Origin: Tagaea sp.
GTDB taxonomy: Bacteria > Pseudomonadota > Alphaproteobacteria > CACIAM-22H2
DNA length: 64,000 nucleotides
NCBI GenBank assembly: GCA_965279525.1
Contig: CBDIIB010000005.1
Coordinates: 992,001-1,056,000, forward strand
Direction: 5' to 3'
Shown here piece after piece: positions 5,711 to 63,321 of the stretch. A program made the position numbers and the translations under genes. The notes under the pieces are model-generated. The model had not been told where the DNA came from. It was given only the letters and a program-made list of their open reading frames with translations, and ran no database searches. The number at the start of each line of letters is the position of its first letter. Position 1 is the first letter of the stretch.

Positions 5711-5714
5711 AGCG

Positions 5715-7751
5715 TCAGTCGTCCGCCGCGACCGCGCGTTCGCCCGGTACCCACAGCGGCAGCCGGCACGTGACGGTCGTGCCTTCGCCGGGCACGGACA
5801 CGAGATCGATCGTGCCGCCGTGCAGCTCGACGATGCGCTTGACCAGCGACAGGCCGAGCCCCGCCCCCATGCGCCGCGCGTCGGGGGCCGCACCGCGCTC
5901 GAATTCCTTGAACACGCGCGCCTGGTCGGCGATCGGGATGCCAACGCCATTGTCGGCGACCTCGAGCGAGACCATGCGCTCGTCCGCATGCGCCGAAAGC
6001 CGCACCACCCCGCCGGGCGGCGTGAACTTGAGCGCGTTGGAGACGAGATTGCACATCGCCTGCTTCAGGCGCCGCTCGTCGCCACGCAAGCGCGGAACCC
6101 GGGCGCGCACCACGTCGAGCTTCAGTTCGCGCTCGCGCGCGAGATCGCCCATGATCTGGGCGGCGTCGGCCAGCATCTCGACCGGATCGACGGCGGCCAG
6201 TTCCAGCGTCATGCGGCCCGCGTCGATCGAGGCGAGATCGAGGATGTCGTTGATGATCGCCAGCAGACGTTCCGACGCGGTCAGGATGTCGGCACAGTAT
6301 TCGCCCTGGCGCTTGTTGAGATCGCCGAAATACTGCTTCGACAGCAGCTCGGCGAACCCGATGATCGTGTTGAGCGGCGTGCGCAGCTCGTAGGACACGG
6401 TCGAAATGAACTCGGATTTGAGCCGGTCGGCGGCTTCCAGCGCTTCGGCGCGCTCGCGCAGCGCCTGCTCGACACGCACCTTGTCGGTCACGTCCACGTA
6501 GGAAAGCTGCGTGGCGCCGTCGGGCAGCGGAACGAGCGCGTAGTCGAGCACGCGCCCGTCGGTGCGCTCGATGCGCGCATTGGCGGCATCGCGCGAGGTC
6601 AGGTTCTCGACGAGGCGCTCCTTCAGCGACGACCAGTCGATGTCGGCAGGATAGAAGGCGCGCATGCGCTCGACGACGTCGGCGATATGCGGCTCGGCGA
6701 TCAGGGCGGCGTCGGGGATGTCCCAGATGCGCGCGAAAGCCGGATTGTGGAGCTTGAGCCGCCCGTCCGAACCGAACACCGCCACGCCTTCGTAGAGATT
6801 GTCGAGCGTGGCCCGCTGGACCGCGATCAGCGTGTTGTACGAGCGCTCGAGCACGAGACGGTCGGTCACGTCCTCGAACGCGAACAGCAGCCCGCCCAGC
6901 GGGTGTGGCATACAGCGCTCGCGCAGCGTCGTGCCGTCGGGCAGGTACATCAGCTCGTCGAACGATTCGAAAATCGTGTCGAACAGCTTGAGCCGCTGGC
7001 GCTTGAACATGCGGAAGTCGGCGACCTCCGGCAGGCGCCGGCGCTCGCGCAGGTTCTCGAGGATTTCGCCGTATTCCGGCTCACCGGACAGCCACGCCTC
7101 GTCGGCGCGCCACAGGCGCGCATAGGCGCTGTTGAAGTATTTGAGCCGCTTGTCGGCGCCGAAGATGCCGATGGCGACGGGCATCGTCTCGAGGACCGCG
7201 CCCTGTGCGGCGATATGGCGGGCAAGCTCGATGCCCGCATCTTCCCGCTCTGTCTGGTCGACGGCCATGCCGACCGTGCCGCCGTCGGGCAATGGCGCTT
7301 CGACGAACTCGTAGAGGCGCCGGGCACCCGACACGACGATGTGCTCGGCCTCGCTCTGTGCCGTGCGCGCGGCAAGCGCAAGGCGCGCCAGTGCTGCAAG
7401 CCGGCGCGACAGGGCGGGCCCGCCGATGCCGTCGCTGCCGGCCAGCAGTTTCTCGCGCTCGACGTCGGCCGCCAGCGCATAGGCCGAATTGCACCACACG
7501 AGCCGCTGCTCGCCGTCGCGCCGCCACAGCGGGAGGGGAAGCGCGTCGAGGGCCGCCTCGATCCGTCTTGCCGTGTCTTCGGCCGCTTCGCGCTCGGCGC
7601 GCAGAAGATTGGTGCGCACGGAAAGCTCGTTGCGGGAAATCTCGGCCGCACGGGCACGTGCGGTCTCGGCGCGCAGACGCTGCAGCAGGAAAAGGCATCC
7701 CGCCCCGCCCAGCCCCAGCCCCGTCGCCAGTCCCGTCAGAAGTTCGTTCAC
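5715..7751 (-). CDS. divL: PAS-domain pseudo-histidine kinase DivL-like
   Basis: N-terminal TM segment, several PAS folds, H-box VSYELRTPL with Tyr in place of His, HATPase boxes; sits downstream of ahcY. Confidence 0.85.
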   Translation of the reverse strand: MNELLTGLATGLGLGGAGCLFLLQRLRAETARARAAEISRNELSVRTNLLRAEREAAEDTARRIEAALDALPLPLWRRDGEQRLVWCNSAYALAADVEREKLLAGSDGIGGPALSRRLAALARLALAARTAQSEAEHIVVSGARRLYEFVEAPLPDGGTVGMAVDQTEREDAGIELARHIAAQGAVLETMPVAIGIFGADKRLKYFNSAYARLWRADEAWLSGEPEYGEILENLRERRRLPEVADFRMFKRQRLKLFDTIFESFDELMYLPDGTTLRERCMPHPLGGLLFAFEDVTDRLVLERSYNTLIAVQRATLDNLYEGVAVFGSDGRLKLHNPAFARIWDIPDAALIAEPHIADVVERMRAFYPADIDWSSLKERLVENLTSRDAANARIERTDGRVLDYALVPLPDGATQLSYVDVTDKVRVEQALRERAEALEAADRLKSEFISTVSYELRTPLNTIIGFAELLSKQYFGDLNKRQGEYCADILTASERLLAIINDILDLASIDAGRMTLELAAVDPVEMLADAAQIMGDLARERELKLDVVRARVPRLRGDERRLKQAMCNLVSNALKFTPPGGVVRLSAHADERMVSLEVADNGVGIPIADQARVFKEFERGAAPDARRMGAGLGLSLVKRIVELHGGTIDLVSVPGEGTTVTCRLPLWVPGERAVAADD

Positions 7752-7796
7752 GCCGCCATCCTAGACGAAGGCCGCGAGTCGGAGCGAGGGGGACGC

Positions 7797-7835
7797 AAAA
7801 CGGCAACGGCCGGAGCCCTTGCGGGCCCCGGCCGT
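7797..7835 (-). terminator. Intrinsic terminator-like hairpin after ahcY
   Basis: Minus strand ACGGCCGGGGCCC-GCAA-GGGCTCCGGCCGT followed by TGCCGTTTT. Confidence 0.6.
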
Positions 7836-7864
7836 GACTTCCCGCCCCTGAAGGGCGATATCGT

Positions 7865-9262
<1,398 letters not shown>

Positions 9263-13490: not shown

Positions 13491-15158
13491 TTACGCAGCC
13501 GGAAGCCGGATCCGGAATCGGGCGCCACGGATTTCCCCATTGGAATCATGGCGATTTTCGGCCTCGATCACGCCGCCGTGGGCTTCGACGATCTGACGGG
13601 AGATCGACAGGCCCAGACCGGAGTGGGTTCCGAATTTTTCGGCCGCCGGGCGCTCGGAATAGAACCTTTCGAAGATCGATTCGAGCTTGTCGGCCGGTAT
13701 GCCGGGGCCGTCGTCGTCGATTGTCACGGTGACAAACTCGCCCGCCCGGCCCACGGCGATCCGGACCTCGGCCCCGGGCGGGCTGAAAGACTGCGCATTC
13801 GCGATCACATTGCGGAAGACCTGGCCGAGCCGGTCGGCGATGCCCATCACGGCGAACGGGCCGGCGCCGGCCCGGGTCAGGACGGGCTTCGCCTGGTCGG
13901 GCTTGGCGACGGCAGAAAGCGCGTCGACCAGCCCGCCGAGCACTTCGGAAAGATCGACGGGCTCGGCATTGGTGCGGCTGAGTTCGGCATCCAGACGCGA
14001 GGCTCCAGCGATGTCGGTGATCAGCCGGTCGAGCCTTGCGACGTCGTCGAGCACGATGGCCATCAGCTTCTCGCGGACGGCAAGGTCGGGAACCCGTGCG
14101 GCCGTCTCGACGGCACTCTTGAGCGACGTCAGCGGGTTCTTGAGCTCGTGCGCGACGTCGGCCGCGAACCGGTCGATGGCGTCAAGGCGGCGCGACAGCG
14201 CGTCGGTCATCTCCCGCAGGGCCGCGGACAGGTCGCCGATTTCATCGCCGCGCGCCGACAGGTCGGGAATGGCGCCGGCGAGTGCCGCCCCCGCCCCCAG
14301 CGTGCCGCCGATCCGCGCGCGTGTCCCGCCGGTGCGCACCCGGTCGGCGGCCCGCGCGAGCCGGCGGATCGGTCGCGCGATCGTGCCGGCAAGATAGAGC
14401 GACAACAGGACGGTCAGCAGAAGCGTGACGCCCGCAACCCGCAGGATGTCGCGCCGCACGGTGCGCAGCGCGACCTCGATGTTGCGCCCGTCGCTCGACA
14501 GCATCAGGGCGCCCAGCACCTGCTTGAAGCGCTGGACCGGAACGGCGACCGACAGCAGGACCTGGCCGCTTGCGGTCCGCCGCACCGCCCGTCCACCGTC
14601 GCCGACGAGGGCCGCGATCGCTTCCTCGTAGTCGAGGGCGACCGGATCGCGCCGCTCGCGATAGAGCGGCAGGTTGAGATTGCCGGCAAGCCCGCCGCCG
14701 AAAAAGTCCGACAGCGCGTCGACCGTGCGGCCGGGCAGCGGCGCCGCGGGCTCGGGCGGCGGCAGGATCTCGACTTCGACCGCGAGGCTGCCCTGCCCCA
14801 ACACACGGGTGTCGGCCAGCAGCATCCCGGTGAAGTCGAACAGGCGGGCGCGCACGCGCGTCGGCTCGACGAGACGGCGCAGGATCTGGCGCGCGACGTC
14901 GGGAGCAAGTCGGTCGTCGCGCTCCTCGTCGTCCGGATCGGCGACCGAGACGGCCGCCTCGCCCAGTGCCGCCGCGATGATCTGGCTTTGGGTGGACAGG
15001 GCCTGCAGCTCGGACTCGATCAGGCCGCGGCGGAAATCGTCGAGATAGAGCACGCCCGCCGCCAGCAGAAGCAGCGGCAGCATGTTCAAGAACAGGATGC
15101 GCCGGGTGAGCGGCGAGAAACTTCGGCGGAAACCGAACCGGACGGCCATGGCTGGCAT
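13491..15158 (-). CDS. chvG: Sensor histidine kinase ChvG/ExoS/BvrS
   Basis: SPLTRRILFLN TM1, stimulus-sensing periplasmic domain, HAMP, DVAHELKNPLTSL, FERFYSERP, HSGLGLSIS; upstream of hprK. Start uncertain (15149 or 15158). Confidence 0.92.
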   Translation of the reverse strand: MPAMAVRFGFRRSFSPLTRRILFLNMLPLLLLAAGVLYLDDFRRGLIESELQALSTQSQIIAAALGEAAVSVADPDDEERDDRLAPDVARQILRRLVEPTRVRARLFDFTGMLLADTRVLGQGSLAVEVEILPPPEPAAPLPGRTVDALSDFFGGGLAGNLNLPLYRERRDPVALDYEEAIAALVGDGGRAVRRTASGQVLLSVAVPVQRFKQVLGALMLSSDGRNIEVALRTVRRDILRVAGVTLLLTVLLSLYLAGTIARPIRRLARAADRVRTGGTRARIGGTLGAGAALAGAIPDLSARGDEIGDLSAALREMTDALSRRLDAIDRFAADVAHELKNPLTSLKSAVETAARVPDLAVREKLMAIVLDDVARLDRLITDIAGASRLDAELSRTNAEPVDLSEVLGGLVDALSAVAKPDQAKPVLTRAGAGPFAVMGIADRLGQVFRNVIANAQSFSPPGAEVRIAVGRAGEFVTVTIDDDGPGIPADKLESIFERFYSERPAAEKFGTHSGLGLSISRQIVEAHGGVIEAENRHDSNGEIRGARFRIRLPAA

Positions 15159-51125: not shown

Positions 51126-51826
51126 TGGCGATCCTCCCCCTCACGCTCGACAGGGTGACGCTTGCGATCGGCGGCACGAAAATCGTTTCCGATTTCAGCC
51201 TGCGCCTTGAAGCGGGCATCCGCACCGTGATCGTCGGACCGAACGGGGCGGGCAAGAGCATGCTGCTGCGCCTGTGCCACGGGCTGGTGTCGCCCACGGG
51301 CGGCACGCTTGCATGGGCCGGCGACCCGGCAGGAAAGCAGGCGATGGTCTTCCAGCGCCCGTCGATGCTGCGCCGCTCGGTACTGGCCAACGTCGCCTAC
51401 GGGCTGAAGCTTCGCGGCGTGGGCCGTGCCGAGCGCGAGGCGAAAGCACGCGAGATGCTCGCGCGCGTGGGACTTGCACATCTGTCGGATCGGCCCGCGC
51501 GCGTGTTGTCGGGCGGCGAGCAGCAGCGCGTGGCGCTGGCGCGCGCCTGGACGCTCGCGCCCAAGATCCTGTTCCTCGACGAGCCGACCGCAAGCCTCGA
51601 TCCCGGCGCCTCCCTTGCGGTCGAGGAGATCGTGCTCGCGATGGCGGCCGAAGGCACCAAGATCGTGATGACCACCCACAATCTCGGCCAGGCACGCCGC
51701 ATCGGCGACGAGATCGTGTTCGTCCACAACGGCCGCATCGCCGAACGCGCTGCGGTCGACGCCTTTTTCCGCACGCCGGTCACGCATGAGGCCGCCGCTT
51801 TCCTCAAAGGAGAACTGCCATGGTGA
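51125..51826 (+). CDS. tupC: Tungstate ABC transporter ATPase
   Basis: GPNGAGKS, LSGGEQQR, LDEPTASLDP; lies between tupB and tupA. Confidence 0.9.
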   Translation: MAILPLTLDRVTLAIGGTKIVSDFSLRLEAGIRTVIVGPNGAGKSMLLRLCHGLVSPTGGTLAWAGDPAGKQAMVFQRPSMLRRSVLANVAYGLKLRGVGRAEREAKAREMLARVGLAHLSDRPARVLSGGEQQRVALARAWTLAPKILFLDEPTASLDPGASLAVEEIVLAMAAEGTKIVMTTHNLGQARRIGDEIVFVHNGRIAERAAVDAFFRTPVTHEAAAFLKGELPW

Positions 51827-52650
51827 TGCTTCGTCGGATCCTTCTTGGCGTCCTGCTGCTTGGCGCCGCTCCAGCACACGCGCAGGAGCGCTTCATCACG
51901 GTCGCGTCGACGACGTCGACCGACCAGTCGGGGCTGTTCGGCCACCTGCTGCCGGCCTTCAAGCGCGCCTCGGGCATCGACGTGCGCGTCGTGGCGCTGG
52001 GCACCGGGCAGGCGCTCGACGTGGGCCGTCGCGGCGACGCCGACGTCGTGTTCGTCCACGACAAGGTCGCGGAGGAGAAGTTCGTCGCCGAAGGCTTCGG
52101 CGTCTCGCGTACCCAGGTCATGTACAACGACTTCGTCGTGATCGGCCCGAAGGCGGATCCGGCGAAGGCCGCCGGCCTCAAGGACATCCTCGAGGCGTTC
52201 CGGCGCATCCAGGCCACACAGGCGCCCTTCGTGTCGCGCGGCGACAAGTCGGGCACGCATGCCGCCGAGCTGCGCTACTGGCAGGACGCGAAGGTCGATC
52301 TCGCCGCGACGAAGGGGACCTGGTATCGCGACGTCGGCCAAGGCATGGGCCCGGCACTCAACACCGCGACGGGCATGAACGCCTATATCCTCGCCGACCG
52401 CGCGACGTGGCTCAACTTCAAGAACCGGGGCGAGCTCGATATCCTCGTGCAGGGCGACGAGAAGCTGTTCAACCAGTACGGCGTGATCCTCGTGAATCCT
52501 GCGCGCCATGCCGGCGTGAAAAAGGAAATGGGCCAGGCCTTCATCGACTGGCTCGTCGGCCCCGACGGGCAGCGCACGATCGCGGATTACAAGATCGGCG
52601 GCGAATCGCTGTTCTTCCCGAACGCGATCAGCGTGAAGCCACGGTCGTGA
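51820..52650 (+). CDS. tupA: Tungstate-binding periplasmic protein
   Basis: ASTTSTDQSGL, GTGQAL, VMYNDF, FVSRGDKSGTH, GMGPALN. Confidence 0.92.
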   Translation: MVMLRRILLGVLLLGAAPAHAQERFITVASTTSTDQSGLFGHLLPAFKRASGIDVRVVALGTGQALDVGRRGDADVVFVHDKVAEEKFVAEGFGVSRTQVMYNDFVVIGPKADPAKAAGLKDILEAFRRIQATQAPFVSRGDKSGTHAAELRYWQDAKVDLAATKGTWYRDVGQGMGPALNTATGMNAYILADRATWLNFKNRGELDILVQGDEKLFNQYGVILVNPARHAGVKKEMGQAFIDWLVGPDGQRTIADYKIGGESLFFPNAISVKPRS

Positions 52651-52654
52651 GGCG

Positions 52655-54340
52655 CTAGAAGCGCATCGACACGTCCCAGTAGATGCGCAGCGGCCGCTCG
52701 CCCTCGGTGAGCGAGGGCACGCGGGTCAGCGGCTGGGCGAGCTCCAGCCCCGACGACAGCCAGTTGTCGTGCGCCACCTTGATGCCCACGCCAGCCGACG
52801 CGAGCGTCTGCGTGAACGACGAACCGCTGCCGCGCCGGTTCCACGCCCAGCCATAGTCGTAGAAGACGTAAGGCTGCCAGCCGGCCGTGGCGAGATCGCC
52901 GTAGCGGATGTCGAGCGCCGAGCCGGCACCGTTGACACCCGTGATCTCCGACGGATCGTAGCCGCGCCCGAAGCGCCCGCCGCCAAGCGAGAACTCCTCG
53001 CCCGAATAGAGCCGGTTGCGTGTCGCCTGGCCGGCCAGCGTCCACTGGGCGGTGAAGTCGTCGCTCAGGAGCTGGATGCGCCGGATCTCGCCGGTGAACT
53101 TGGTGAATTGCGGCTGCGCGTCGGAGCGGCTGTGCTGCAGGTCGTTCGGGTTCTCGGTGCCCAGCCCGATGATGCCCCGGACGATGCCCGCCGACAGCAC
53201 CGTGGCACCCTGCATGAAGCCCAGATGCGAGAATGTCAGCCGCGCGTCGGTCGCGAGGTAGCGGTCGCGCGTCAGGGGATCGCCGCGCACGAACGTCGCG
53301 GTGCGCGAGACGTAGGCCGACGTGTCGAACACGAGATTGACGCGCCGCGAGCGGATGACCGGATAGGAAAGGCGCGGCCCCAGGCGCCAGGCGGTCGTGT
53401 GGACCTGCAGCGCCTTCAGCGTGTGGCCGGGCCAGCCCCACGAATAGGTGGTGTCCCAGCCGAACACGAGCCCGTCGTCGCCGATCGGCTGGGTGTAGCG
53501 GAACACGCCCTGGCGCAGTTCGCGGTTGCTGTGCCGGGACGGGACCGTCGAGCCGCCGATCGTCAGCTGCTCGTTCAGGCCGAGCAGGCCGTTGAACGAC
53601 GTTTCGGCATAGACGGTGACCGGCCCCTGGAACTTCGACGCGCGGTTCGACACCGTCACGCTCGACTGCACCGTCTTCTCCTCGATCCGCACGAGGAGGT
53701 TGGACGAACCCGGCTCCTTGCCGGGGGCAAGCGTGCCTGCGGCACTGACGCCCGCAAGATCGCCGGCAAGCAGCAGCCCGCGTTCGATGGCCGCGAGGTT
53801 GGCGGGCCGTCCTTCGAAGGCGCGGCGCAGATAGGCGCGGATGCGCGCGCGCGCGGAATCCGAACCGCCGTCGAACTCGATCTCGGAAAGAAAGCCCTCT
53901 ACGACCTGGATGCGGAACGTGCCGTCGCCCACGCGCTGCGGCGGCACGAAGGCACGCGAAAGCACATAGCCGTCGGCCCGGTAGCGGTTCTCGATCGCCT
54001 CGGCCACCGCCGTGATCGCCGACAGGCCGAGCGTCTGGCCGATCAGCGGCTGGGTGAAGGCGGAAAGCTGGGCCGGGCTGTAGACGGTCGAGCCCTCGAC
54101 CGTGATTCGCGAAATGGGAAAGCGCAATTCGTCGACCGCCCGCCGGTCGGGTGCCCGCGGCTGGGCCGGGATCGACAGTTCGAGCTCGGCTTCGGGAACC
54201 GGCAGGCCGCGGCCGGGAATCCGTGGCTCGGCGGCCGGCGGCAGCACGAGCTGGGCCTGGGCATGGGTCGGCGCGACCGCGAGAAGCAGCAGCAAAAAGG
54301 CACGGATTACCAGTCGGGCGGGTCGTTTCGAGTCGGCCAT
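52655..54340 (-). CDS. ShlB/FhaC/HecB (TpsB/Omp85) outer-membrane beta-barrel
   Basis: Signal peptide, POTRA motif YRADGYVLSRAFVPPQ...IQVVEG, EEFSLGG..FGRGY loop, FYDYG, terminal Phe. Confidence 0.9.
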   Translation of the reverse strand: MADSKRPARLVIRAFLLLLLAVAPTHAQAQLVLPPAAEPRIPGRGLPVPEAELELSIPAQPRAPDRRAVDELRFPISRITVEGSTVYSPAQLSAFTQPLIGQTLGLSAITAVAEAIENRYRADGYVLSRAFVPPQRVGDGTFRIQVVEGFLSEIEFDGGSDSARARIRAYLRRAFEGRPANLAAIERGLLLAGDLAGVSAAGTLAPGKEPGSSNLLVRIEEKTVQSSVTVSNRASKFQGPVTVYAETSFNGLLGLNEQLTIGGSTVPSRHSNRELRQGVFRYTQPIGDDGLVFGWDTTYSWGWPGHTLKALQVHTTAWRLGPRLSYPVIRSRRVNLVFDTSAYVSRTATFVRGDPLTRDRYLATDARLTFSHLGFMQGATVLSAGIVRGIIGLGTENPNDLQHSRSDAQPQFTKFTGEIRRIQLLSDDFTAQWTLAGQATRNRLYSGEEFSLGGGRFGRGYDPSEITGVNGAGSALDIRYGDLATAGWQPYVFYDYGWAWNRRGSGSSFTQTLASAGVGIKVAHDNWLSSGLELAQPLTRVPSLTEGERPLRIYWDVSMRF

Positions 54341-54469
54341 CGTCCTGACAACCGTAGTACACGACCGGACGGACTTTTGACAATTCGAGGTACCCGGCAA
54401 GCGTCGGTATTCGTTAAATCTTGTGGATTGAATGGATCGGCGCTAATTGACTCCTTGCGAGGAAAATCC

Positions 54470-55156
54470 ATGTCCATCCCCCCGTTTTCAGCCAAATCCG
54501 CAATTTCCGGCGCGATTCTGGCCGGCTTGCTCGTCGCCGCCGGCCCTGCCGATGCCCAGCAACGCCAGCCCCCCCCGCCGGCGGCGCCCGCCGCACCCGC
54601 GGCAGCGGCGGAGTTCAAGCTCAACGGATTCCGCTCGGCCAATTTCGGCATGACGGCCGAACAGGTCCGCCAGGCGATCCGCAAGGATTTCAGCCTCGGG
54701 CCCGACAAGATCGAGACGGCCGACAACGCGGTCGAACGCACGCAGATCCTTGCGGTCACGGTGAACGACCTGCTGCCCAACAGCGGCCCGGCGCAGGTCG
54801 CCTACGTGATCGGCTTCCGCACCAAGCAGCTCGTCGCGGTCACCGTGACGTGGGGCGGCTCGGTCAACCCGCAGCTTGCACCCGGACAGGCGGTCGAGTT
54901 CGCGCGCATGCTGCAGGGCTATCTGGCGGGCGTGGGGTACAAGCCCGAGACGATTGTCGCCGGCGCCCAGCAGGCGGACGGATCGATCGTGATGTTCCGC
55001 GGCGACGACTCGCAAGGCCGGCGCACGATCGTCGTGCTGGGCGGCGTGGCCGCACCCGAGGGCCAGAAGCCGGCCGGCCCGCCGGTCCTGCAGATCTCGT
55101 ACATCCGCGATCCGCAGACGCCCGACGTGTTCCAGATCCGGAAGGGCGACTTCTAG
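54470..55156 (+). CDS. Exported hypothetical protein
   Basis: GAGG RBS; signal peptide ending ADA-Q, Pro/Ala linker, globular domain starting GFRSANFGMT; first gene of a tight operon. Confidence 0.8.
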   Translation: MSIPPFSAKSAISGAILAGLLVAAGPADAQQRQPPPPAAPAAPAAAAEFKLNGFRSANFGMTAEQVRQAIRKDFSLGPDKIETADNAVERTQILAVTVNDLLPNSGPAQVAYVIGFRTKQLVAVTVTWGGSVNPQLAPGQAVEFARMLQGYLAGVGYKPETIVAGAQQADGSIVMFRGDDSQGRRTIVVLGGVAAPEGQKPAGPPVLQISYIRDPQTPDVFQIRKGDF

Positions 55157-55161
55157 ACGCG

Positions 55162-55677
55162 ATGTTCAAGCGCACGTTCCCCAAGGGCAAGGTCCTGTTC
55201 AAGGAAGGCGATCCGGGGCTCGAGGCGTTTCTCGTCGAAAAGGGCAAGGTGCTGATCCTGAAGATGGGGACCGAGGCGCCGATCATCGTGGCGAGCCTGG
55301 GTTCCGGCGCGCTGTTCGGCGAGATGGCGATCCTCGACGGCAGCCCGCGCATGGCGACCGCCGTCGCGGGCGAAGACACGGTGTGCGTGGTCATCAACAG
55401 CCAGCAGCTCACGCAGCGCATGATGATGCTCGATCCCGACCTGATGCGGCTCGCCACCTCGCTGATGGAGTACGTGCGCTCGACCGTGCCCTTCGAGATG
55501 CGCGCGAAGGCCGGCCTTTCCAACGAAGAGACCGTGCAGGACCGCCACGCGCGCCTGATGCTGCCGCGCCCGGAAGTGGTCGAAAGCTACGGCATCAAGG
55601 ACCCGATGCTGCGCGCGCTGTTCAACATGCTGTGCGACTACACGCGCCGGCGCCTGCCGCCCGCACCGGCCGGCTAG
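55162..55677 (+). CDS. Cyclic nucleotide-binding domain protein with short helical C-terminus (no obvious HTH)
   Basis: LFKEGDPG, FLVEKGKV, LFGEMAILDGSPRMATAVA phosphate-binding cassette. Confidence 0.9.
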   Translation: MFKRTFPKGKVLFKEGDPGLEAFLVEKGKVLILKMGTEAPIIVASLGSGALFGEMAILDGSPRMATAVAGEDTVCVVINSQQLTQRMMMLDPDLMRLATSLMEYVRSTVPFEMRAKAGLSNEETVQDRHARLMLPRPEVVESYGIKDPMLRALFNMLCDYTRRRLPPAPAG

Positions 55678-55681
55678 CGCG

Positions 55682-58600
55682 ATGCAGCCCTTTCGCGCGC
55701 GCTTGCTTGTTGCCGCATTGCTGGCCGGCACGGCCGCCGTTTCCGGCTGCCAGTCGGCGGGAAGCGGCACGGGCCTGTCGCGCGCGGCGGGCGAGAACCT
55801 GTCGGGCGATGCCTGCCGCGCCGAGCCGCGCCGGGGCCAGTCGCGCACCGATACGCCCGTTCTCGACATCACCTGCACGGGCAGTGCGCGCGTCGCGGGA
55901 TCGGTCGTCCAGCTCGGCGCGCAGCGCGGCGCCCCTGCCGACGGGCCGGCACGTCAGGCGCATTTCGCGCAAGCACTGGAATCAAGCGCCCCGATGCGGG
56001 CACTGGGTACGCGCGCCACGTGCGAAACGCCGCAATGGATCGCCACGCAAGCCGAACCCGAACTGCTGGTGGCGCGCTGCGCGCTGAAGGACGGCGGCTG
56101 GCCCTATCTGGTGGCGGGCCTCGCGGCGGGCGACGCGCTGGCGTTCGGCGAAGGCCAGCCGTCGGCTATTCCGGCCCTCGCCCATGCGATGCGCCAGGGG
56201 CTGCCGGGCACGGCCGCGCGCGACGTCGCCCCGCTTGTACCCGCCGAGCGCCAGGCGCTGACGGCGAAGCTCGAACAGGTTTTCGGCGGCGGCACGGCGC
56301 TCGCCGGCGATTCCGCCGGCGCCTATCAGGATTTCGTCGAGCTCGCGCGCCTCTACAACAGCACCGGCAACCACGCGGGCGCCGAGACGGCCTACCGGCG
56401 TGCACTCGAGCTGCAGACCGCGGCCCTCGGCGCCGAGCATGCCGGCATCGGCACGACGCTGACGCTGCTGGCGATGGAGATCTCGAACCAGGGGCGCGGC
56501 GAGGAAGCGGACGCGTTCTTCCGGCGCGCCGAAGCGCTCGTCATCAAGTCGCCCGATCCGGGCGAGTATCCGCGCTATCTGGGCTATCTGGGCATGCATG
56601 CGGCCAACCAGCGCCAGTTCGACCGGGCGCTGGCGGTGGCGCGCGACACGATCCAGCGCCGGCGCGACCTGATCGAGCGGCTCGGCGGCGGCATTCCCGC
56701 CGGGCTCGACGCGGGCGGCGGCGGGTCGATCTTCGGCGGGGCCGTCTTCCTGCAGGCGGAACTGGCGCACGCGCTGATGTTCGCGTCGGCGATGGCGCTG
56801 CGCACCGGCGACCTTGCCGGTGCGGAAGCCCATGCGCTCGAAGCGCGCCGCATCGTCGACCGCACGCCGGGCCTGCCGGCCTGGTGGCAGCCGCAGGCGA
56901 TCGGGCAACTTGGCGAGGTGCTCGCCGCGCGCGGCGATTTCCGCAATGCCGAACGGCTGCTCGCGTCGGCCGCCGAGTTGCGCTTGCGCGTGTTCGGCAC
57001 GGGCTGGCCGGTGGCGCAGGGGCTGATGGCGCTGGGCCGCGCGCAGTCGGCCGACGGCCGCTATCCGGAATCGATCGGGAACTATCGCGGCGCCTTGCGC
57101 CTCATCGTGGCCGAAACGCCGACGCGCAATCTCAATTTCGACCAGATCCGGCCCTTCCTGGAGGCAGGCGAAGCGCAAGGCCGCCGCGTGCCGGCCGAGG
57201 CCGCCGCCCTGCATGCCGAGATGTTCGCCGCCGTGCAGCTGATGCGCGAGGGCACGATGGGCCGTGCCGTCGCGCGCACCGCCCAGCGCGTGGCAGCCGA
57301 CGATCCGCGCATCGCGGCCCTGGTGCGCGACCATGGCGAGGCCACGCGCCGGCGCGACCGGCTGCAGGTCGACCTCGCCGGCGAACTGGGCCGGCCCAAT
57401 CAGTCGCGCGATGCCGCCCGCGTCGAGCGTCTGCGCGGCGAGCTGGGCCAGCAGAACCAGCGCATCGCCGCCCTCAATGCCGAGATCGAGACGGCCGCTC
57501 CCGGTTTCGAGCGGCTGGTGTCGCCCAAGCCCGTCGATCCGGCCACGCTCGCCAAGGCGCTAGGCCCGCGCGAGGCGTTGGCCGTCTATGCGGTCGGGCC
57601 GGACGGCGCGTTCGCGTTCCTCGTGCGCGCGTCGGGCGTCGTCGCGGTCAAGCTCGACACCGACGAAGTACAGCTCGCCGAGCAGGTCAAGGCGCTGCGC
57701 GGCGCTTTCGAGATCCGCGATCGCAACGTCGCCCCGTTCGACACCGCACTTTCCCACCGGCTCTACCGCACGCTCGTGGGTCCGCTCGAGGCCGAGCTTG
57801 CCGGCATCGAGCAGCTCTATGTCGTGGCCAACGGGGCACTCGCGAGCCTGCCCTTCGGCATCCTTGCCGCGGCACCGCCGGCGGCGGCTCCGGCCGGCGA
57901 CTATTCGCGCGTGGCGTGGCTTGCCCGCCGCGTGGCGATTTCCAACCCGCCGTCGGTGCGCGCGTTCCTCGAGCTGCGCGCACTCGCCCGCCGGCCGTCG
58001 GCGCCCGAGCCGCTGCTCGCGCTGGCCAATCCCGATTTCGCCGGCGGTGCGCCGGGCGGGCTTGGCGCCCTTGCCGGTGCGTGCCGCACCGAAGGGGCGG
58101 TACCTTCGGCGCTGATCCGGGCCCTTGCCCCGTTGCCCGAGACGGCCGACGAAGTGCGCCGCGTGGCCGCCACGCTCAATGCCGGCAGCGATTCGCTGCT
58201 GCTGGGGGCCAACGCCACGGCCGCCAACCTGCGTAGCCGCCAGCTCGACCGCTATCGCGTCGTCTACTTCGCCACGCACGGGCTGCTGCCGGGCGAGCTG
58301 CGCTGCCAGGCCCAGCCCGGCCTTGCGATGTCCGCACCGGCAACCGACGTGAGCGACCCGCTGGTCGACGGCCTGCTGGAAGCCGGCGAGATCGCGAGCC
58401 TGCGCCTGGACGCCGATCTCGTCGTGCTGTCGGCGTGCAATACGGCCGCGTCGGGCGAACGGCTGGGCGGGGAATCGCTGTCGGGCCTTGCCGAGGCGTT
58501 CTTCTTCGCAGGGGCCCGAAACCTGCTGGTGACGCACTGGCAGGTCCCCTCGCAGCAGACCGTGGCGCTGACCACGGGCATGTTCGAGCGGCTGGGCGGT

Positions 58601-58747
58601 GACCTCAAGCGCGGGATCGCGCCGGCCCTGCGCGCGGCACAGATGGCGCTGGCCGACGTGCCGGCCACCTCCCACCCGTTCTTCTGGGGGGCGTTCGTGC
58701 TGCAGGGCGACGGGGCGGCGGTGGCGCCGGCGGGCAACCCGAGCTAA
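55682..58747 (+). CDS. Lipoprotein with TPRs and a C-terminal CHAT (caspase-like, clan CD) protease domain
   Basis: Lipobox AVSG-C, Cys-containing N-terminal domain, TPR-like helices, YFATHGLL (His), LVVLSACNTA (Cys), HPFFWGAF. Confidence 0.92.
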   Translation: MQPFRARLLVAALLAGTAAVSGCQSAGSGTGLSRAAGENLSGDACRAEPRRGQSRTDTPVLDITCTGSARVAGSVVQLGAQRGAPADGPARQAHFAQALESSAPMRALGTRATCETPQWIATQAEPELLVARCALKDGGWPYLVAGLAAGDALAFGEGQPSAIPALAHAMRQGLPGTAARDVAPLVPAERQALTAKLEQVFGGGTALAGDSAGAYQDFVELARLYNSTGNHAGAETAYRRALELQTAALGAEHAGIGTTLTLLAMEISNQGRGEEADAFFRRAEALVIKSPDPGEYPRYLGYLGMHAANQRQFDRALAVARDTIQRRRDLIERLGGGIPAGLDAGGGGSIFGGAVFLQAELAHALMFASAMALRTGDLAGAEAHALEARRIVDRTPGLPAWWQPQAIGQLGEVLAARGDFRNAERLLASAAELRLRVFGTGWPVAQGLMALGRAQSADGRYPESIGNYRGALRLIVAETPTRNLNFDQIRPFLEAGEAQGRRVPAEAAALHAEMFAAVQLMREGTMGRAVARTAQRVAADDPRIAALVRDHGEATRRRDRLQVDLAGELGRPNQSRDAARVERLRGELGQQNQRIAALNAEIETAAPGFERLVSPKPVDPATLAKALGPREALAVYAVGPDGAFAFLVRASGVVAVKLDTDEVQLAEQVKALRGAFEIRDRNVAPFDTALSHRLYRTLVGPLEAELAGIEQLYVVANGALASLPFGILAAAPPAAAPAGDYSRVAWLARRVAISNPPSVRAFLELRALARRPSAPEPLLALANPDFAGGAPGGLGALAGACRTEGAVPSALIRALAPLPETADEVRRVAATLNAGSDSLLLGANATAANLRSRQLDRYRVVYFATHGLLPGELRCQAQPGLAMSAPATDVSDPLVDGLLEAGEIASLRLDADLVVLSACNTAASGERLGGESLSGLAEAFFFAGARNLLVTHWQVPSQQTVALTTGMFERLGGDLKRGIAPALRAAQMALADVPATSHPFFWGAFVLQGDGAAVAPAGNPS

Positions 58748-58748
58748 T

Positions 58749-59471
58749 ATGTACGCCATGCGCAACGCGTGGCCCCTCCTCCTCGGCCTGCTGATCGGTG
58801 TCCCGCCCCTCTTTTCCCCGGGGGCCGGGGCGAACGAGCTTGTCGTGGTCGAGGCCAAGGGCGTGGAACTCGCCCCGGGTGCCAAGGTCGACGGCACGAA
58901 GGTGCTGCAGCTTGCCGCCGGCCAGCGCGTGACGCTGATCGCGGCCGACGGGCGCACGGTCAAGCTGCGCGGCCCCTATGAAGAAGCGCCGGCCCCCGCC
59001 GCCGGCCAGACCGCCAGCATGGGCGACGCGCTCAAGAACCTGATGAACCAGCGCGGCTCCGGCACGGCCCAGCTCGGTGTCGTGCGCGCCGCGGGCGACG
59101 CGGCCGAACTGCCCGAGCCGTGGCTCGTGGACGTGGGCCGTTCGGGTGCGCGCTGCCTCCAGGCCAGCGGCGTGCCGGTGCTGTGGGGACCGAAATTCGC
59201 CGCGAACACCGAGCTTGCCATCGAGCCCGCCGACCGCAGCTGGCGCGCCAAGGGCACGTGGCCGGCCGAGACCGACCGGCTGGCGCTCGCCGGCCGCATC
59301 CCGCTTGCCGACGGCGGCTCGTATGTGTTCGACGTCGGCGGCAATCCCGCCAACGTGACGATCCACCGGATGCCGGCGGGCTTCGCCGATCCGGTGCTGC
59401 AGGCGGCCTGGATGATCGAGAAGGGCTGCGAGGACCAGGCGCGGGCACTGGTACGCGAAGCGCAACGTTGA
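58749..59471 (+). CDS. Exported beta-rich protein (FecR-N/DUF928-like partner of CHAT/CHASE2 loci)
   Basis: Signal peptide, beta-strand N-terminal domain, C-terminal WMIEKGCEDQA helix; 1 bp after the CHAT stop; family assignment is inference. Confidence 0.7.
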   Translation: MYAMRNAWPLLLGLLIGVPPLFSPGAGANELVVVEAKGVELAPGAKVDGTKVLQLAAGQRVTLIAADGRTVKLRGPYEEAPAPAAGQTASMGDALKNLMNQRGSGTAQLGVVRAAGDAAELPEPWLVDVGRSGARCLQASGVPVLWGPKFAANTELAIEPADRSWRAKGTWPAETDRLALAGRIPLADGGSYVFDVGGNPANVTIHRMPAGFADPVLQAAWMIEKGCEDQARALVREAQR

Positions 59472-59493
59472 AGATAAGGGCCGGGGGTTGACG

Positions 59494-61494
59494 ATGGAAG
59501 CAGCGGCCGTCGTCAAGCGCGTCGCCACGACGCTCGTCATCGCGGCCATCGCCGGGTCCGTCACGTTCGGCATCTTCTATTTCTTCCCGTTCCTGGGCAC
59601 GGCCGAACGCTGGACGCGCGATTTCCGCATCGCGAACATGTCGCCGCCCGAGCCGCAGCACCCCGACATCGTCGTGGCGGCGATCACGGAAGAAACACTG
59701 TCGTCGTTTCCCTACCGCTCGCCGGTCGACCGCAAGTTCCTTGCCGACACGGTGCGCGCGATCGCGGCCAAGGGCGCCAAGGCGATCCTGATCGACGTGC
59801 TCTTCGACCAGGAGACCGAGGAAGACAAGGACGACGAGCTTCGCGAGGCACTGGCGGAACTGACGATCCCGTTCTCGATCAGCTACTCGGATTCGCCCAC
59901 CTACGTGACCGACGAGCAGCTCGCCTATCTCGACGATTTCGTGAAGCCGGCCTGGCGCGGCCTTGCCGACATCGAGCCCGACAAGACCGACGGCATCATC
60001 CGCTTCGTGCCGCCGCCGCGCCACGTCAAGGACGGCACCTACGTGCCCAACGTCGCGGCCCGCGTGGCCCAGCTGCTGGGCGCGACGATCCCCGACAAGC
60101 AGAGCATCATCGCCTGGCGCGGCGAGCCCGACAGCGCCACGCAGCCCTTCCGCGAATTCCCGGCGCACGCCGTGCGCGTGCTGCCGGAAGCGTGGTTCAA
60201 GAACAAGATCGTGCTGGTGGGTGCCAACCTGTCGCTGACCGACCGCTATCGCACGCCGTTCTCGATCGGCCGCGACGTGGGCGACAACCGCATGGCCGGG
60301 ATCGTGATCCAGGCGCACATCCTGGCGCAGATGCTGGAGATGCGCGTGGCGCCCGAGGAGCGCGCCTTCGTGCCGCATCTCGTGACGCTGGCGCTGCTCG
60401 CGTTGATCGGTGCGGCACTCGGCAGCACCGGCGTGCCGATCTCGGTGCGGCTGGGCGGCGCCACGCTCGCGGTCGTGCTGCTGTGGGCGGCGGGCTGGTA
60501 CCTGTTCAAGGCCGACCATCCCTTCGTGCCGCTGGTCGAGGCGATGACCGGCGGGCGCAACCTGCTTGTCCCGCTGATCGAGCCGATCGTGGCGCTGGGC
60601 ATGGCGCTGTGGCTGTCCGACGCATGGTCGGGGCGCGAAGAACGCCAGCAGAAGAAGTTCATCCAGGGCGTGTTCAGCAAATACGTGTCGGCCGAGCTGC
60701 TGAACGAGATCGTCAAGGATCCCAAGAAGCTCGATCTTTCGGCGAGCCGCCGGCCGATGTCGCTGATCTTCACCGACGTGCAGGGCTTCACGACGCTGTC
60801 GGAAAAGCTCGAGGCCGCCCATCTCGCCGACGTGCTCAACCGCTATCTCGACGGCGGCTGCCGCGAGATCTGGAAGTACGGCGGCACGATCAACCAGTTC
60901 ACCGGCGACGCGATCTACGCGATGTTCAACGCGCCGCGCGAGCAGCCCGACCACGCGAAGCTGGCGCTGAAAGCCGCGCTCGACATCGACACGTTCTCCG
61001 AAGCGTTCCGCGCGGGCGAGCGCGAGAAGGGCGTGGACATGGGCATGACGCGCATCGGCGTGCACACGGCCGAGGCGAACGTCGGAAATTTCGGTTCGCT
61101 CGACCGTTACGAGTATAAAGCGCTTGGCGATGCGGTGAACACGGCCGCCCGGCTCGAAGGCCTCAACAAGTACTTCGGTACACGCATCCTGATCACGCAG
61201 CAGACGCGCGACGCGAGCCCCGAGATCCCGTGCCGCAAGGTGGGCGGCGTGATCGTCAAGGGCAAGAGCGAGCCCATCCATGTCTTCGAGCCGCTGACCG
61301 GCGCGCGCGCAAACGACGAGAACACGAAGCTCTATCTCGCCGCGTTCGAACTCCTGAAGGCGAAGGACCCGGCGGCACTCGCCGCGTTCGAGGACCTCGC
61401 GCAGCGCTACCCCGACGACGCGCTCGCCGAATACCATCTCGACCGGCTGCGCGAAGGCGAGACCGGCGAGGTCTTCGCGATGGCGGAGAAGTAA
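59494..61494 (+). CDS. CHASE2-domain class III nucleotide cyclase
   Basis: TM, CHASE2 (DIVVAAITEETL, IDVLFD, KNKIVLVG, AGIVIQAH), three TMs, FTDVQGFT, GDA, VNTAARLEGLNK. Confidence 0.93.
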   Translation: MEAAAVVKRVATTLVIAAIAGSVTFGIFYFFPFLGTAERWTRDFRIANMSPPEPQHPDIVVAAITEETLSSFPYRSPVDRKFLADTVRAIAAKGAKAILIDVLFDQETEEDKDDELREALAELTIPFSISYSDSPTYVTDEQLAYLDDFVKPAWRGLADIEPDKTDGIIRFVPPPRHVKDGTYVPNVAARVAQLLGATIPDKQSIIAWRGEPDSATQPFREFPAHAVRVLPEAWFKNKIVLVGANLSLTDRYRTPFSIGRDVGDNRMAGIVIQAHILAQMLEMRVAPEERAFVPHLVTLALLALIGAALGSTGVPISVRLGGATLAVVLLWAAGWYLFKADHPFVPLVEAMTGGRNLLVPLIEPIVALGMALWLSDAWSGREERQQKKFIQGVFSKYVSAELLNEIVKDPKKLDLSASRRPMSLIFTDVQGFTTLSEKLEAAHLADVLNRYLDGGCREIWKYGGTINQFTGDAIYAMFNAPREQPDHAKLALKAALDIDTFSEAFRAGEREKGVDMGMTRIGVHTAEANVGNFGSLDRYEYKALGDAVNTAARLEGLNKYFGTRILITQQTRDASPEIPCRKVGGVIVKGKSEPIHVFEPLTGARANDENTKLYLAAFELLKAKDPAALAAFEDLAQRYPDDALAEYHLDRLREGETGEVFAMAEK

Positions 61495-61783: not shown

Positions 61784-62491
61784 TCACGCCGCCATCGACG
61801 CGCGGTCGATGAGGTTGGCCCAGGAATTCATCGAGGCGAAGTGGGCGTAGGCGACGGCGAGCCAGCCGCGTTTGCGCCAGTCGATGAAGGCGGCGTCGGG
61901 GAGCGTGTCGAACTTCGCGCGATCGAGGATGCGGAAGCCGCCGAGCACGATCTTGCGCCCGTCGGTGAGCGCGAATTCCGCGCGGTGGTCGGCGAGCAGG
62001 CCCGCACTGGCGCACGCGGCGGCGAAGGCCTGGGCGGCATCGGCCTGCACCTGGAACTCGCGCGAGAAGGCAAGCGCCTGCTCGACGAGCGGCGTTGGCT
62101 TCTCGCCGTCGAACAGCGGGATGCCGGCATCGCCGATCGCGTCGGCCGCCTCGTCCACGCACAGCACGAGTTGGTCGGCGAGCTGGGCGAAGGCGAAGGG
62201 ATAGCGGCGCACATAGGCCGGCACGTAGCTGCCCGGCCGCCAGTCGCCCGCCTCGTCGACGAAGAGGTTGCGGCCCTTCTCCACGCCGAGCAACGCGATC
62301 AGCCCGCCCGGTTCGGCGGCCGCGAAGACGAGCGGATAGTGGCGCGCGGCCACTTCGGCTTCGGCCGCCCCCAGCGGCACGGCGTTGGTTTCGCGCGCGA
62401 AGCCGAAGCCGACCGGGGCCGTATAGCGCTTGGTGGCGTGCGCCTCGCGCGAGATCGCCACCGGCCGGCGATAGAGGATCGGCTCGTTCAT
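61784..62491 (-). CDS. SapC-family protein
   Basis: YPLVF, ALLGVEKGRNLFV, YVPAYVRRYPF, GWLAVAYAHFASM; ATG overlaps the upstream stop. Confidence 0.9.
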   Translation of the reverse strand: MNEPILYRRPVAISREAHATKRYTAPVGFGFARETNAVPLGAAEAEVAARHYPLVFAAAEPGGLIALLGVEKGRNLFVDEAGDWRPGSYVPAYVRRYPFAFAQLADQLVLCVDEAADAIGDAGIPLFDGEKPTPLVEQALAFSREFQVQADAAQAFAAACASAGLLADHRAEFALTDGRKIVLGGFRILDRAKFDTLPDAAFIDWRKRGWLAVAYAHFASMNSWANLIDRASMAA

Positions 62492-63321
62492 CTTGCGAGG
62501 AACGCCGCGACCGCGCGGTTGAACGCGTCGGGCACCTCGAAATAGGCGGAGTGGCCCGCTCCTTCGAACGACATGTGCCGCGCGTCGGGGAAGCCCTTGG
62601 CGAGGATCGGTGCCGCGAAAGACGGGAAGACCATGTCGGAACTGCCGGTGAGGAACAGCGTGGGCACCTTCAGGTTCGCCACGTCGGCAAGCTTGCGGGT
62701 GCGCATCTTGACGATGCGCGCGCGCAGATCGTCCTTGGGCAGGCTGGTCGCGAGCGCGTCCATGCCGCGATACAGATGGTGCATGGCCGGGTTCGCCTCG
62801 GCCATCGCGGCACCAAGGGCCGGATGGATCGCGCGCATGCGCAGGTCGGCATTGACCGCGACCGCCCGGTTGCTCCATTCGGCGAATTTCGCGGGATCGG
62901 CCTGGGCCGGATCGAGCGTGCCGCTCGTCGCCGCCAGCACCATGGCCTCGACGCGTGCGGGATGGCGCAGCGCGAATTCAAGCGCGGTCCACCCGCCCAT
63001 CGACTGCGCCACGATGGCGAAGCGCTCGATGCCCAGATGGGCCGTCAATGCTTCGAGGTCGCCGGCGAAATCCGCCGGATCGGGTTTCGTACCCGCCACC
63101 GTCGACGGCGCGAAGCCGCGATGGGAGAAGGTCACGCAGGTGTGACGCAGCCGGAAGAACGGCACCTGCTGCCACCACGACAGATGGTTGCCGCCCAGCC
63201 CGTGCGCGAAGACCAGCGCCGGGCCGTCGCCCGCGACCTCGTAATAGATGCGTGCACCCGGCCGCTCGACGAAGCCGGTGCGTTCGGCGCCGTGCGGCGC
63301 CCAGGGTGTCGTGTCGTTCAT
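62488..63321 (-). CDS. Alpha/beta hydrolase
   Basis: VFAHGLGG, HRGF, AQSMGG, GAGHSAYFE. Confidence 0.9.
   Translation of the reverse strand: MNDTTPWAPHGAERTGFVERPGARIYYEVAGDGPALVFAHGLGGNHLSWWQQVPFFRLRHTCVTFSHRGFAPSTVAGTKPDPADFAGDLEALTAHLGIERFAIVAQSMGGWTALEFALRHPARVEAMVLAATSGTLDPAQADPAKFAEWSNRAVAVNADLRMRAIHPALGAAMAEANPAMHHLYRGMDALATSLPKDDLRARIVKMRTRKLADVANLKVPTLFLTGSSDMVFPSFAAPILAKGFPDARHMSFEGAGHSAYFEVPDAFNRAVAAFLAR

Follow-up and report, generated by a model that had tools for sequence, protein, structure and literature searches.

The DNA analysed here is a stretch of 64,000 nucleotides from Tagaea sp. (positions 992,001 to 1,056,000 of contig CBDIIB010000005.1, assembly GCA_965279525.1; hereafter the window), which carries at 52655-61494 six intact genes: one for a TpsB transporter of the two-partner secretion (TPS) type on the reverse strand and, divergent from it, an operon of five genes (g1 to g5) on the forward strand. 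The reading that we prefer, and to which we give about an even chance, is that this module constitutes a periplasmic relay, in which a TPS machine would act on an exported CHAT-domain protease, the protease on the exported protein g4, g4 on a CHASE2 cyclase, and the product of the cyclase on a receptor for cyclic nucleoside monophosphates (cNMPs). The proposal is built on observed gene content, domains, catalytic residues, export signals, topology and gene order. An original prediction, made from the letters of this DNA, had described the same divergent arrangement with operon gaps of 1-22 bp, and this layout holds: the gaps between g1 and g5 measure 5, 4, 1 and 16 (or 22) bp, the last depending on the start codon of g5. 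The unit comprises the following features (aa, amino acids).

52655-54340, reverse strand: TpsB, 561 aa from an ATG; N-terminal signal peptide, POTRA, 16-strand-type ShlB barrel
54341-54469: divergent intergenic region of 129 bp, presumably holding both promoters
54470-55156, forward strand: g1, 228 aa; signal peptide, without Pfam match
55162-55677, forward strand: g2, 171 aa; cNMP_binding domain, cytoplasmic
55682-58747, forward strand: g3, 1021 aa; predicted lipoprotein, TPR-CHAT caspase-fold protease
58749-59471, forward strand: g4, 240 aa; signal peptide, without Pfam match
59488 (TTG) or 59494 (ATG) to 61494, forward strand: g5, 668 aa; CHASE2 and class III nucleotidyl cyclase domains

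The functional linkage of these genes is strongly supported by their order. Within the genus, a CHAT orthologue was matched in all 20 other genomes, full-length in each except G016, where the contig is cut. The six genes keep the same order and orientation in 19 of the 19 same-genus loci that were fetched, at 59-96% protein identity, so that the arrangement is not attributable to chance. A wider survey, carried out on contigs of one genome per species with profiles built from the matches, was anchored on g4 alone to avoid a bias towards the CHAT protein or the cyclase. It returned 77 loci, 16 from the genus and 61 from outside it. The non-genus loci carry labels from the Alphaproteobacteria (Stellaceae, Rhizomicrobium, Elsteraceae, Telmatospirillum, Phenylobacterium), including the Sphingomonadales (Erythrobacter, Porphyrobacter, Novosphingobium, Sphingobium), as well as Burkholderiaceae, 'Bordetella', metagenome-assembled genomes (MAGs) of Oxalobacteraceae, Magnetococcales and one Thiotrichales MAG. 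At least two named species carry the module, namely Niveispirillum cyanobacteriorum TH16 (L001) and Erythrobacter sanguineus DSM 11032 (L103). Of the 48 non-genus loci that leave 3 kb of room, 31 have CHAT as the immediate upstream neighbour of g4; of the 54 that leave 2 kb, 41 have a CHASE2 cyclase as its immediate downstream neighbour. The complete CHAT-g4-cyclase triad is present in 36 of the 61. TpsB adjoins the triad on the same strand in 16 of these 36 and is found elsewhere in the locus in two, while another 11 have too little flank. Gene order is kept down to 26-45% protein identity and across orders. Since the g4 profile detects its family in 39 of the 401 sampled genomes of the class (33 of 308 genera), the module can be regarded as widespread but patchy. 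The linkage assumed in the original prediction is thus borne out by synteny across records labelled Alphaproteobacteria, Betaproteobacteria and Magnetococcales.

At the centre of the operon, g3 encodes a predicted caspase-fold protease of clan CD. Its CHAT domain reaches 198.2 bits in Pfam (cut-off 24; E 2.7e-58), TPR_12 is matched as well, and the His866-Cys919 dyad, which had been described as intact, is invariant in all 45 full-length sequences, that of the window included. None of the solved structures is close to g3 in sequence, the only matches being those of its TPR region to kinesin light chain. The N-terminus ends in a lipobox (...AAVSGC), so that a lipoprotein is predicted. When the N-termini of homologues were read by eye, a lipobox was found in the genus and in L047, L050, L054, L064, L022 and L001, and an ordinary signal peptide in others, e.g., L052, L058, L060, L063, L069, L071, L088 and L097; none of those read was devoid of an export signal. 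These signals support an extracytoplasmic location of the CHAT protein, as had been proposed. The characterised CHAT proteases HetF, Csx29 (Craspase) and separase are cytoplasmic or nuclear. The g3 protein resembles them in that TPRs precede a CHAT domain carrying the His/Cys dyad; unlike them, g3 and the homologues read carry export signals, which sets them apart from a cytoplasmic or nuclear location.

The second component, g4, is the partner that accompanies the protease and the cyclase most constantly, and it belongs to no named family. The search returned 100 homologues, all of them unnamed or 'hypothetical' with the exception of one evident misnomer, and none with a recorded Pfam domain. 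None of 45 members matched any Pfam family beyond chance, FecR included (E up to 1), and alignment to the FecR-bearing N-terminus of a protein encoded on pSymB of Sinorhizobium meliloti gave an hhalign probability of 0.2%. Cys136 and Cys227 are invariant, as expected for a periplasmic protein with a disulfide. The AlphaFold2 (AF2) model (pLDDT 85.3) starts with a small beta domain and a helix, which a flexible linker connects to a beta-sandwich followed by two helices at the C-terminus; hence the term 'beta protein' used for it earlier fits its two beta domains but leaves out three helices. This linker, modelled with low confidence, includes G110 and R113, which all 45 sequences share, mostly within a G-V-V-R motif, and we infer that this G-V-V-R113 stretch may be a candidate cleavage site. 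Foldseek against the PDB gave weak beta-sandwich rows, the best being the N-domain of MalQ (E 9.7e-4, TMq 0.27). A wide VIA fold search aligned residues 27-89 to a 'Cell surface anchoring domain' (5ix9; Z 6.5, 63 aligned residues, rmsd 2.4) and also returned FN3-like rows at Z 4-5. Because fold matches of this kind, like those of g1 described below, fall within the commonly seen score range, neither protein was assigned to a family.

The neighbours of g4 in distant relatives indicate what kind of partner it is. In four Magnetococcales loci (L070, L076, L085, L089) it adjoins proteins of 1082-2375 aa with DUF4347 at the N-terminus and Peptidase_C14 at the C-terminus, and cadherin-like or Ig-like domains are present in three of these proteins; an OEP gene is found in L070, and HlyD- or OEP-type genes flank g4 in L077, L080 and L092. 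In L055 the g4 homologue adjoins a WD40-Peptidase_C14 protein. Given these CHAT or Peptidase_C14 neighbours on one hand and the cyclases on the other, g4 would be a partner of caspase-fold proteases generally and of CHASE2 cyclases in most cases. In one genome of the class sample, the g4 homologue (G215:C4:782902-783542, reverse strand) appears to be split into two matches, one of them interrupted by a TGA, and may be a broken copy.

The last gene of the operon encodes a CHASE2 cyclase, with Pfam scores of 114 bits (E 9.2e-33) for CHASE2 and 54 bits (E 2.9e-14) for Guanylate_cyc. Its hydrophobic segments lie at about 11-37, 292-340 and 358-377. Because one such segment precedes CHASE2 and three transmembrane passes follow it, the CHASE2 domain is placed in the periplasm and the cyclase domain in the cytoplasm. 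In an alignment of 62 cyclases (17 from the genus and 45 from outside it), no sequence, that of the window included, deviates at the metal-binding Asp430 and Asp474 or at the transition-state residues Asn551 and Arg555. Two further positions, 470 and 544, are the ones that we take to specify the base in class III cyclases, Lys/Thr being presumably the adenine-specifying pair. All 17 genus cyclases have Gln470 and Lys544 instead (codons at window positions 60895-60897 and 61117-61119), whereas Lys/Thr is found in 37 of the 45 non-genus cyclases and Lys/Ser in three; the cyclases of S. meliloti and Azospirillum, as well as two paralogous cyclases of the window's own genome, likewise pair Lys with Thr or Ser. 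In addition, the genus cyclases have Asn where six comparison cyclases have an Asp just before the Lys. As Gln/Lys replaces the adenine-specifying pair, the product of g5 may not be cyclic AMP (cAMP): the original assignment stands insofar as g5 is a CHASE2 class III cyclase with its catalytic residues, but it should not be read as an adenylate cyclase. The Gln/Lys change coincides with the appearance of g2.

The g2 protein is the putative receptor of the nucleotide in this lineage. Its residues 4-87 match cNMP_binding in Pfam (71.8 bits, cut-off 27.5; E 4.7e-20), and its phosphate-binding cassette, FGEMAILDGSPRMATAVA, appears intact by eye (Gly-Glu ... Arg-x-Ala type). No DNA-binding domain was detected with Pfam or NCBIfam, the CRP model PRK11753 scoring 23 bits against a cut-off of 266 over the cNMP part only. 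Full-length relatives of g2 are limited to the genus cluster and two proteins at 36-39% identity. In distant relatives a cNMP-binding protein of another kind is encoded. In L022 an MscS-type channel with a C-terminal cNMP-binding domain (13533-15032) directly follows the CHASE2 cyclase, and matches to this channel stand after the cyclase in seven further loci: L056, L068, L069 and L107, L088 (where the match is in three parts), and L059 and L065 (where the contig ends within it). The idea of a co-encoded cNMP receptor applies to g2 here, but g2 itself is genus-specific and the distant relatives have the cNMP-binding channel.

The first gene, g1, encodes a signal peptide followed by a Pro/Ala linker and has no Pfam or NCBIfam match. 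Its 60 homologues, none with a recorded Pfam domain, come mostly from the genus cluster and are mostly at least 59% identical; a homologue also lies upstream of CHAT in L047, and g1 is thus largely confined to the Tagaea lineage. The AF2 model (pLDDT 80.4) is an alpha/beta tandem, for which Foldseek gave no row at E <=0.001 and VIA gave a best row of Z 7.8 to the DUF4309 protein YjgB (4ygt), which is not decisive. A protein atlas returned only unnamed clusters for g1 and only generic small cNMP-binding clusters for g2. The C-terminus of g1 (window 55130-55156) follows the pattern ...PD[VI][FY]xx..G[DEQS]F, with the last Phe invariant in 23 of 23 aligned sequences; speculatively, it might serve as a docking tail for a TPR or PDZ-type pocket.

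At the other side of the divergent region, TpsB matches ShlB (93.1 bits, cut-off 22.7; E 2.9e-26) and POTRA_2 (80.8 bits, cut-off 24; E 6.4e-23) in Pfam, and its residues 63-560 align to CdiB (6wim, E 4.5e-22), the closest among the solved structures. A hallmark of the TpsB family is the (V/I)RGY motif of the L6 loop. Here it reads G458-R459-G460-Y461, R459 being kept in 34 of 36 homologues and Y461 in 33. In all 21 genomes of the genus a single ShlB-family gene is present, always beside the CHAT operon. The genome of the window has one gene with a TPS domain (122.7 bits), at G000:C5:1372290-1384061 (L023:6290-18061, forward strand), 320 kb downstream of TpsB. It encodes a TpsA protein of 3923 aa with DUF5649 repeats and without a toxin domain detectable in Pfam, whose first 400 residues match EtpA (E 7.7e-72), the 'Adhesin' chain 2odl and a heme/hemopexin-binding protein. 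As hmmscan of the full-length protein gave DUF5649 only and no TPS, the genome TPS score and the EtpA match were trusted instead. This TpsA gene has a hybrid histidine kinase gene upstream and no adjoining TpsB.

A TPS-domain match was obtained in 19 of the 21 genus genomes, and its position relative to the module differs among lineages. In a sister clade (G001, G002, G009, G015, G018) TpsA starts about 400 bp after the orthologous TpsB. Homologues of the TpsA N-terminus occur in 13 of the 61 non-genus loci and on the Niveispirillum plasmid (L001): TpsA directly follows TpsB in L083, L093, L103 and L106, and is the large gene upstream of CHAT in L054, L060, L061, L069, L073, L078 and L107. In L022 a 2542-aa open reading frame (ORF) with DUF5649 repeats directly precedes CHAT; no TPS domain was detected in it, and on the strength of its repeats and position it is taken for a probable TpsA. 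Since TpsA stands beside the module in relatives, the ancestral unit would have comprised TpsA, TpsB, CHAT, g4 and the CHASE2 cyclase, with TpsA having moved away in the window's clade, and it can be inferred that the TpsB of the window exports the distant EtpA-like TpsA. By these features TpsB is predicted to be a true transporter with a cargo and not a bare receptor or orphan sensor barrel. The original prediction needs correcting at this point, as the RGY motif is kept, the gene is the sole ShlB-type one in 21 of 21 genomes and a TpsA partner exists. It follows that the 'TpsB-linked cue' postulated for the protease is most likely a two-partner-secreted exoprotein.

The genome of the window contains further genes related to the module. 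About 18 kb from the relocated TpsA, a second module (G000:C5:1387116-1394935; L024:4116-12935, reverse strand) holds on one strand a familyless ORF of 378 aa, a TPR-CHAT protein of 1064 aa, a Peptidase_C14 protein of 472 aa and a CHASE2 cyclase of 865 aa. The CHAT paralogue has a lipobox; the Peptidase_C14 protein starts with a signal peptide, and its His/Cys pair is intact. No match to the g4 profile was obtained in this module. TpsA also lies 15-18 kb from a CHAT paralogue in G003, G005, G007, G010, G011 and G019. A third CHASE2 cyclase is encoded by a 1080-aa open frame at 5458-8697, forward strand, of L029 (G000:C5:1712001-1726000), and an ORF with a cNMP-binding domain (L029 8710-10203, reverse strand) is convergent to it. 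On plasmid pAB510c of Azospirillum sp. B510 (L002, 9049-13638), genes for a 233-aa hypothetical protein, a CHASE2 cyclase and a ShlB-family TpsB run in one direction; the cyclase matches the g5 CHASE2-cyclase profile, and this variant lacks a protease.

The preferred reading accommodates these components in the following way. TpsB in the outer membrane would export the EtpA-like TpsA exoprotein, and the TPR-CHAT lipoprotein would be periplasmic, with the outer membrane next to the POTRA domains of TpsB as its probable site. The g4 protein, and g1 in this lineage, would be soluble periplasmic partners, with the CHASE2 domain facing the same compartment. In a first step, the TPR region of the protease would read the state of TpsA/TpsB (secretion, stalling or surface engagement). 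Once activated, the protease would cut g4, the candidate site being the linker motif described above. The altered g4 would then change the CHASE2 domain, and hence cyclic-nucleotide synthesis in the cytoplasm. Finally, the nucleotide would be read by g2 here, and by the cNMP-binding MscS-type channel in distant relatives. A more specific version is advanced only tentatively, as a minority possibility. According to it, CHAT would cut g4 at G-V-V-R113 upon engagement or stalling of the TpsA filament, the cleavage product would be the ligand of CHASE2, the Gln/Lys cyclase would make a nucleotide other than cAMP, and g2 would be a dedicated receptor that arose with this change.

The closest functional parallel is found in S. 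meliloti, where the CHASE2 cyclases CyaK, CyaD1 and CyaD2 need the outer-membrane protein NsrA for a signal from plants or from ribosomal proteins, and where Clr reads the resulting cAMP (PMC7529298, PMC13001267). Three exported Clr targets, one with FecR and one with TPRs, are dispensable for signal perception (PMC5498481). Both systems combine a CHASE2 cyclase, an outer-membrane protein encoded nearby and a cNMP receptor, the outside signal being proteinaceous in S. meliloti. A pSymB-encoded CHASE2 cyclase is 32% identical to g5, and the gene directly preceding it encodes a protein of 1219 aa with FecR and TPRs, presumably NsrA. Searching pSymB with the TpsB and CHAT proteins of the window found nothing; SMb20495, which had been considered as a CHAT protein, was dropped since no CHAT homologue was found on pSymB with the window's CHAT query. 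The partner is therefore TpsB here and a FecR-TPR protein there, and Clr is a transcription factor while g2 has no detected DNA-binding domain. To our knowledge, no protease is known in the NsrA-Clr pathway. Since the partner is not TpsB and pSymB has no TpsB or CHAT match, the resemblance is one of logic and not of membership; the Sinorhizobium parallel drawn in the original prediction holds for function but not for the gene beside the cyclase. A 202-aa ORF with a PycTM match (Pycsar effector, E 1.2e-11) lies divergent just upstream of the FecR-TPR gene on pSymB (L031:2610-3218, reverse strand).

Other known systems share individual elements with the module. As in the TPS systems FhaB/FhaC, EtpA/EtpB and CdiA/CdiB, TpsB has POTRA_2, a ShlB barrel and the L6 RGY motif, and TpsA an EtpA-like TPS domain; unlike in those described, an exported CHAT protease and a CHASE2 cyclase are present, and TpsA and TpsB lie 320 kb apart. 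No TPS system with either an exported CHAT protease or a CHASE2 cyclase was found in the literature searched. The LapA/LapG/LapD system of Pseudomonas combines a giant adhesin on the cell surface with a cysteine protease in the periplasm and an inner-membrane protein linked to a cyclic nucleotide, LapD receiving cyclic di-GMP from inside and controlling the protease (inside-out). An envelope circuit of protease, adhesin and membrane protein of this kind may be the mode of the module as well, although the protein families are unrelated. Because the membrane protein g5 makes the nucleotide, the flow of the signal here would most likely be outside-in, unlike that of LapD.

Single chains in which caspase and CHASE2 domains are fused have also been described, from cyanobacteria and other organisms; for that of Trichodesmium, a cytoplasmic caspase domain and an outward-facing CHASE2 are predicted (PMC3501461, PMC8195603). 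The module likewise pairs a caspase fold with CHASE2, but as a separate, exported protease in the same compartment as CHASE2. The BiofilmReg operon of Burkholderia encodes a FecR/LysM protein and a CHASE2 histidine kinase (PMC5192318). It therefore shares with the module a small exported partner encoded beside a CHASE2 sensor; its partner is FecR-type, its output is a kinase, and neither a protease nor a TpsB belongs to it. It is stated there that what the CHASE2 domain senses is not known (PMC5192318), and no CHASE2 ligand turned up in the literature searched. Nor was a published description of the whole pathway found, in agreement with the original prediction, most subscription journals being outside the coverage of the search.

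Several observations weigh against a relay. Which proteins touch, what the protease cuts, which way the regulation runs and which nucleotide is made are all deduced, and contact or cleavage appears in none of the results. TpsB was not found in 7 of the 36 triads despite at least 1.8 kb on both sides, and the search for a TPS domain came up empty in G006 (94% complete) and G008 (96%), both of which keep the operon. In addition, g4 occurs without an adjoining CHAT in 17 of 48 loci (five of the 17 with a Peptidase_C14 instead) and in 13 of 54 no cyclase adjoins it downstream. The canonical Lys/Thr pair is absent from the genus cyclase, whose activity and product are uncertain. As the dispensable Clr targets of S. 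meliloti illustrate, periplasmic accessory proteins encoded near CHASE2 cyclases can act downstream of them. Finally, where TpsB has a cargo of its own, its adjacency could stem from co-regulation of an adhesin instead of a relay.

The main rival, clearly less probable than the relay and yet a serious contender, is that CHAT is a maturation, release or quality-control protease for TpsA, trimming or clearing its periplasmic part, with g4 as an adaptor or inhibitor and the cyclase only reporting or tuning secretion. Dedicated proteases of the envelope process adhesins of the TPS and type I classes, FhaB and LapA among them, which counts in favour of this idea. So do the TpsA genes directly beside the module in many lineages, the L022 protein that precedes CHAT and shares the DUF5649 repeats of the window genome's TpsA, and the Magnetococcales loci, where g4 stands beside giant surface-type proteins with a C-terminal caspase domain of their own and HlyD/OEP transport genes. 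However, the constant pairing of g4 with the CHASE2 cyclase (41 of 54) would be left with a reporting role only, and no obvious use would remain for the cNMP receptor after the cyclase; moreover, G006 and G008 retain the operon although no TPS domain turned up in them. We also know of no cleavage site in TpsA, which counts against its being the substrate.

It is improbable that TpsB itself exports CHAT, g4 or g1 to the surface or medium, in which case the protease would act outside the cell and the cyclase would be a separate sensor. While TpsB adjoins 16 of 36 non-genus triads, with a TpsA homologue in only 13 non-genus loci, and many non-genus CHAT proteins have a plain signal peptide and no lipobox, no TPS domain was detected by Pfam in CHAT, g1 or g4, the genus protease is a predicted lipoprotein, and the one TpsB per genome (21 of 21) is needed by the TPS-domain protein that 19 of 21 hold.

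Slightly more doubtful still is the view that the genes form a conflict system, serving contact-dependent competition or suicide upon phage attack, with TpsA as toxin or receptor, the protease as executioner and the nucleotide as alarm. The solved structure closest to TpsB is CdiB, and caspase-fold proteases and cyclic-nucleotide signals recur in bacterial immunity, a context in which caspase-CHASE2 fusions are discussed (PMC8195603). On the other hand, TpsA shows DUF5649 repeats only, with no toxin domain in Pfam and an N-terminus like that of the adhesin EtpA; the protease is placed outside the cytoplasm; and every genus genome examined has the module at the same site, its G+C is ordinary for the window, and mobile genes do not adjoin it. 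That the genes are neighbours with no shared function is very improbable, given gaps of 1-22 bp and an order that survives at 26-45% protein identity across orders.

If the relay reading is right, the module may show how CHASE2 membrane sensors are switched on, for which the NsrA pathway of S. meliloti is the sole genetic handle, and cyclic-nucleotide signalling could be coupled through it to adhesion at the surface or to secretion. An exported CHAT protease with fixed partners would represent a new job for the caspase fold, known as a cytoplasmic executioner or regulator. The system is compact (four to six genes), testable and widely recurrent, and the genus-specific Gln/Lys cyclase with its own receptor amounts to a natural experiment in nucleotide specificity.

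As for the regulatory DNA, a block TTCGTTAAATCTTGTGGAT...GGATCGGCGCTAA (54400-54460) in the divergent region is common to the window and its three closest loci (L032-L034), takes a variant form in L035-L037 and is not present in more distant genus loci. A consensus scan of the unit for promoters and terminators did no better than on shuffled sequence, and Rfam gave no match between positions 52000 and 62500. Pieces of TpsB, CHAT, g4 and the cyclase are covered, at 90-97% likeness, by contigs from two RNA-library runs of one study. These contigs come from relatives, with DNA carry-over possible, and give at most a weak hint of transcription; the matching sets X7 and X12 are probably DNA. Two genes flank the unit.

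51820-52650, forward strand: ABC binding protein gene, unrelated, converging on the end of the unit
61784-62878, reverse strand: SapC-family ORF, unrelated, converging on the end of the unit

Because unrelated genes converge on both of its ends, the six-gene unit is well bounded, and its G+C content (0.65-0.73) is close to that of the flanks (0.64-0.71).

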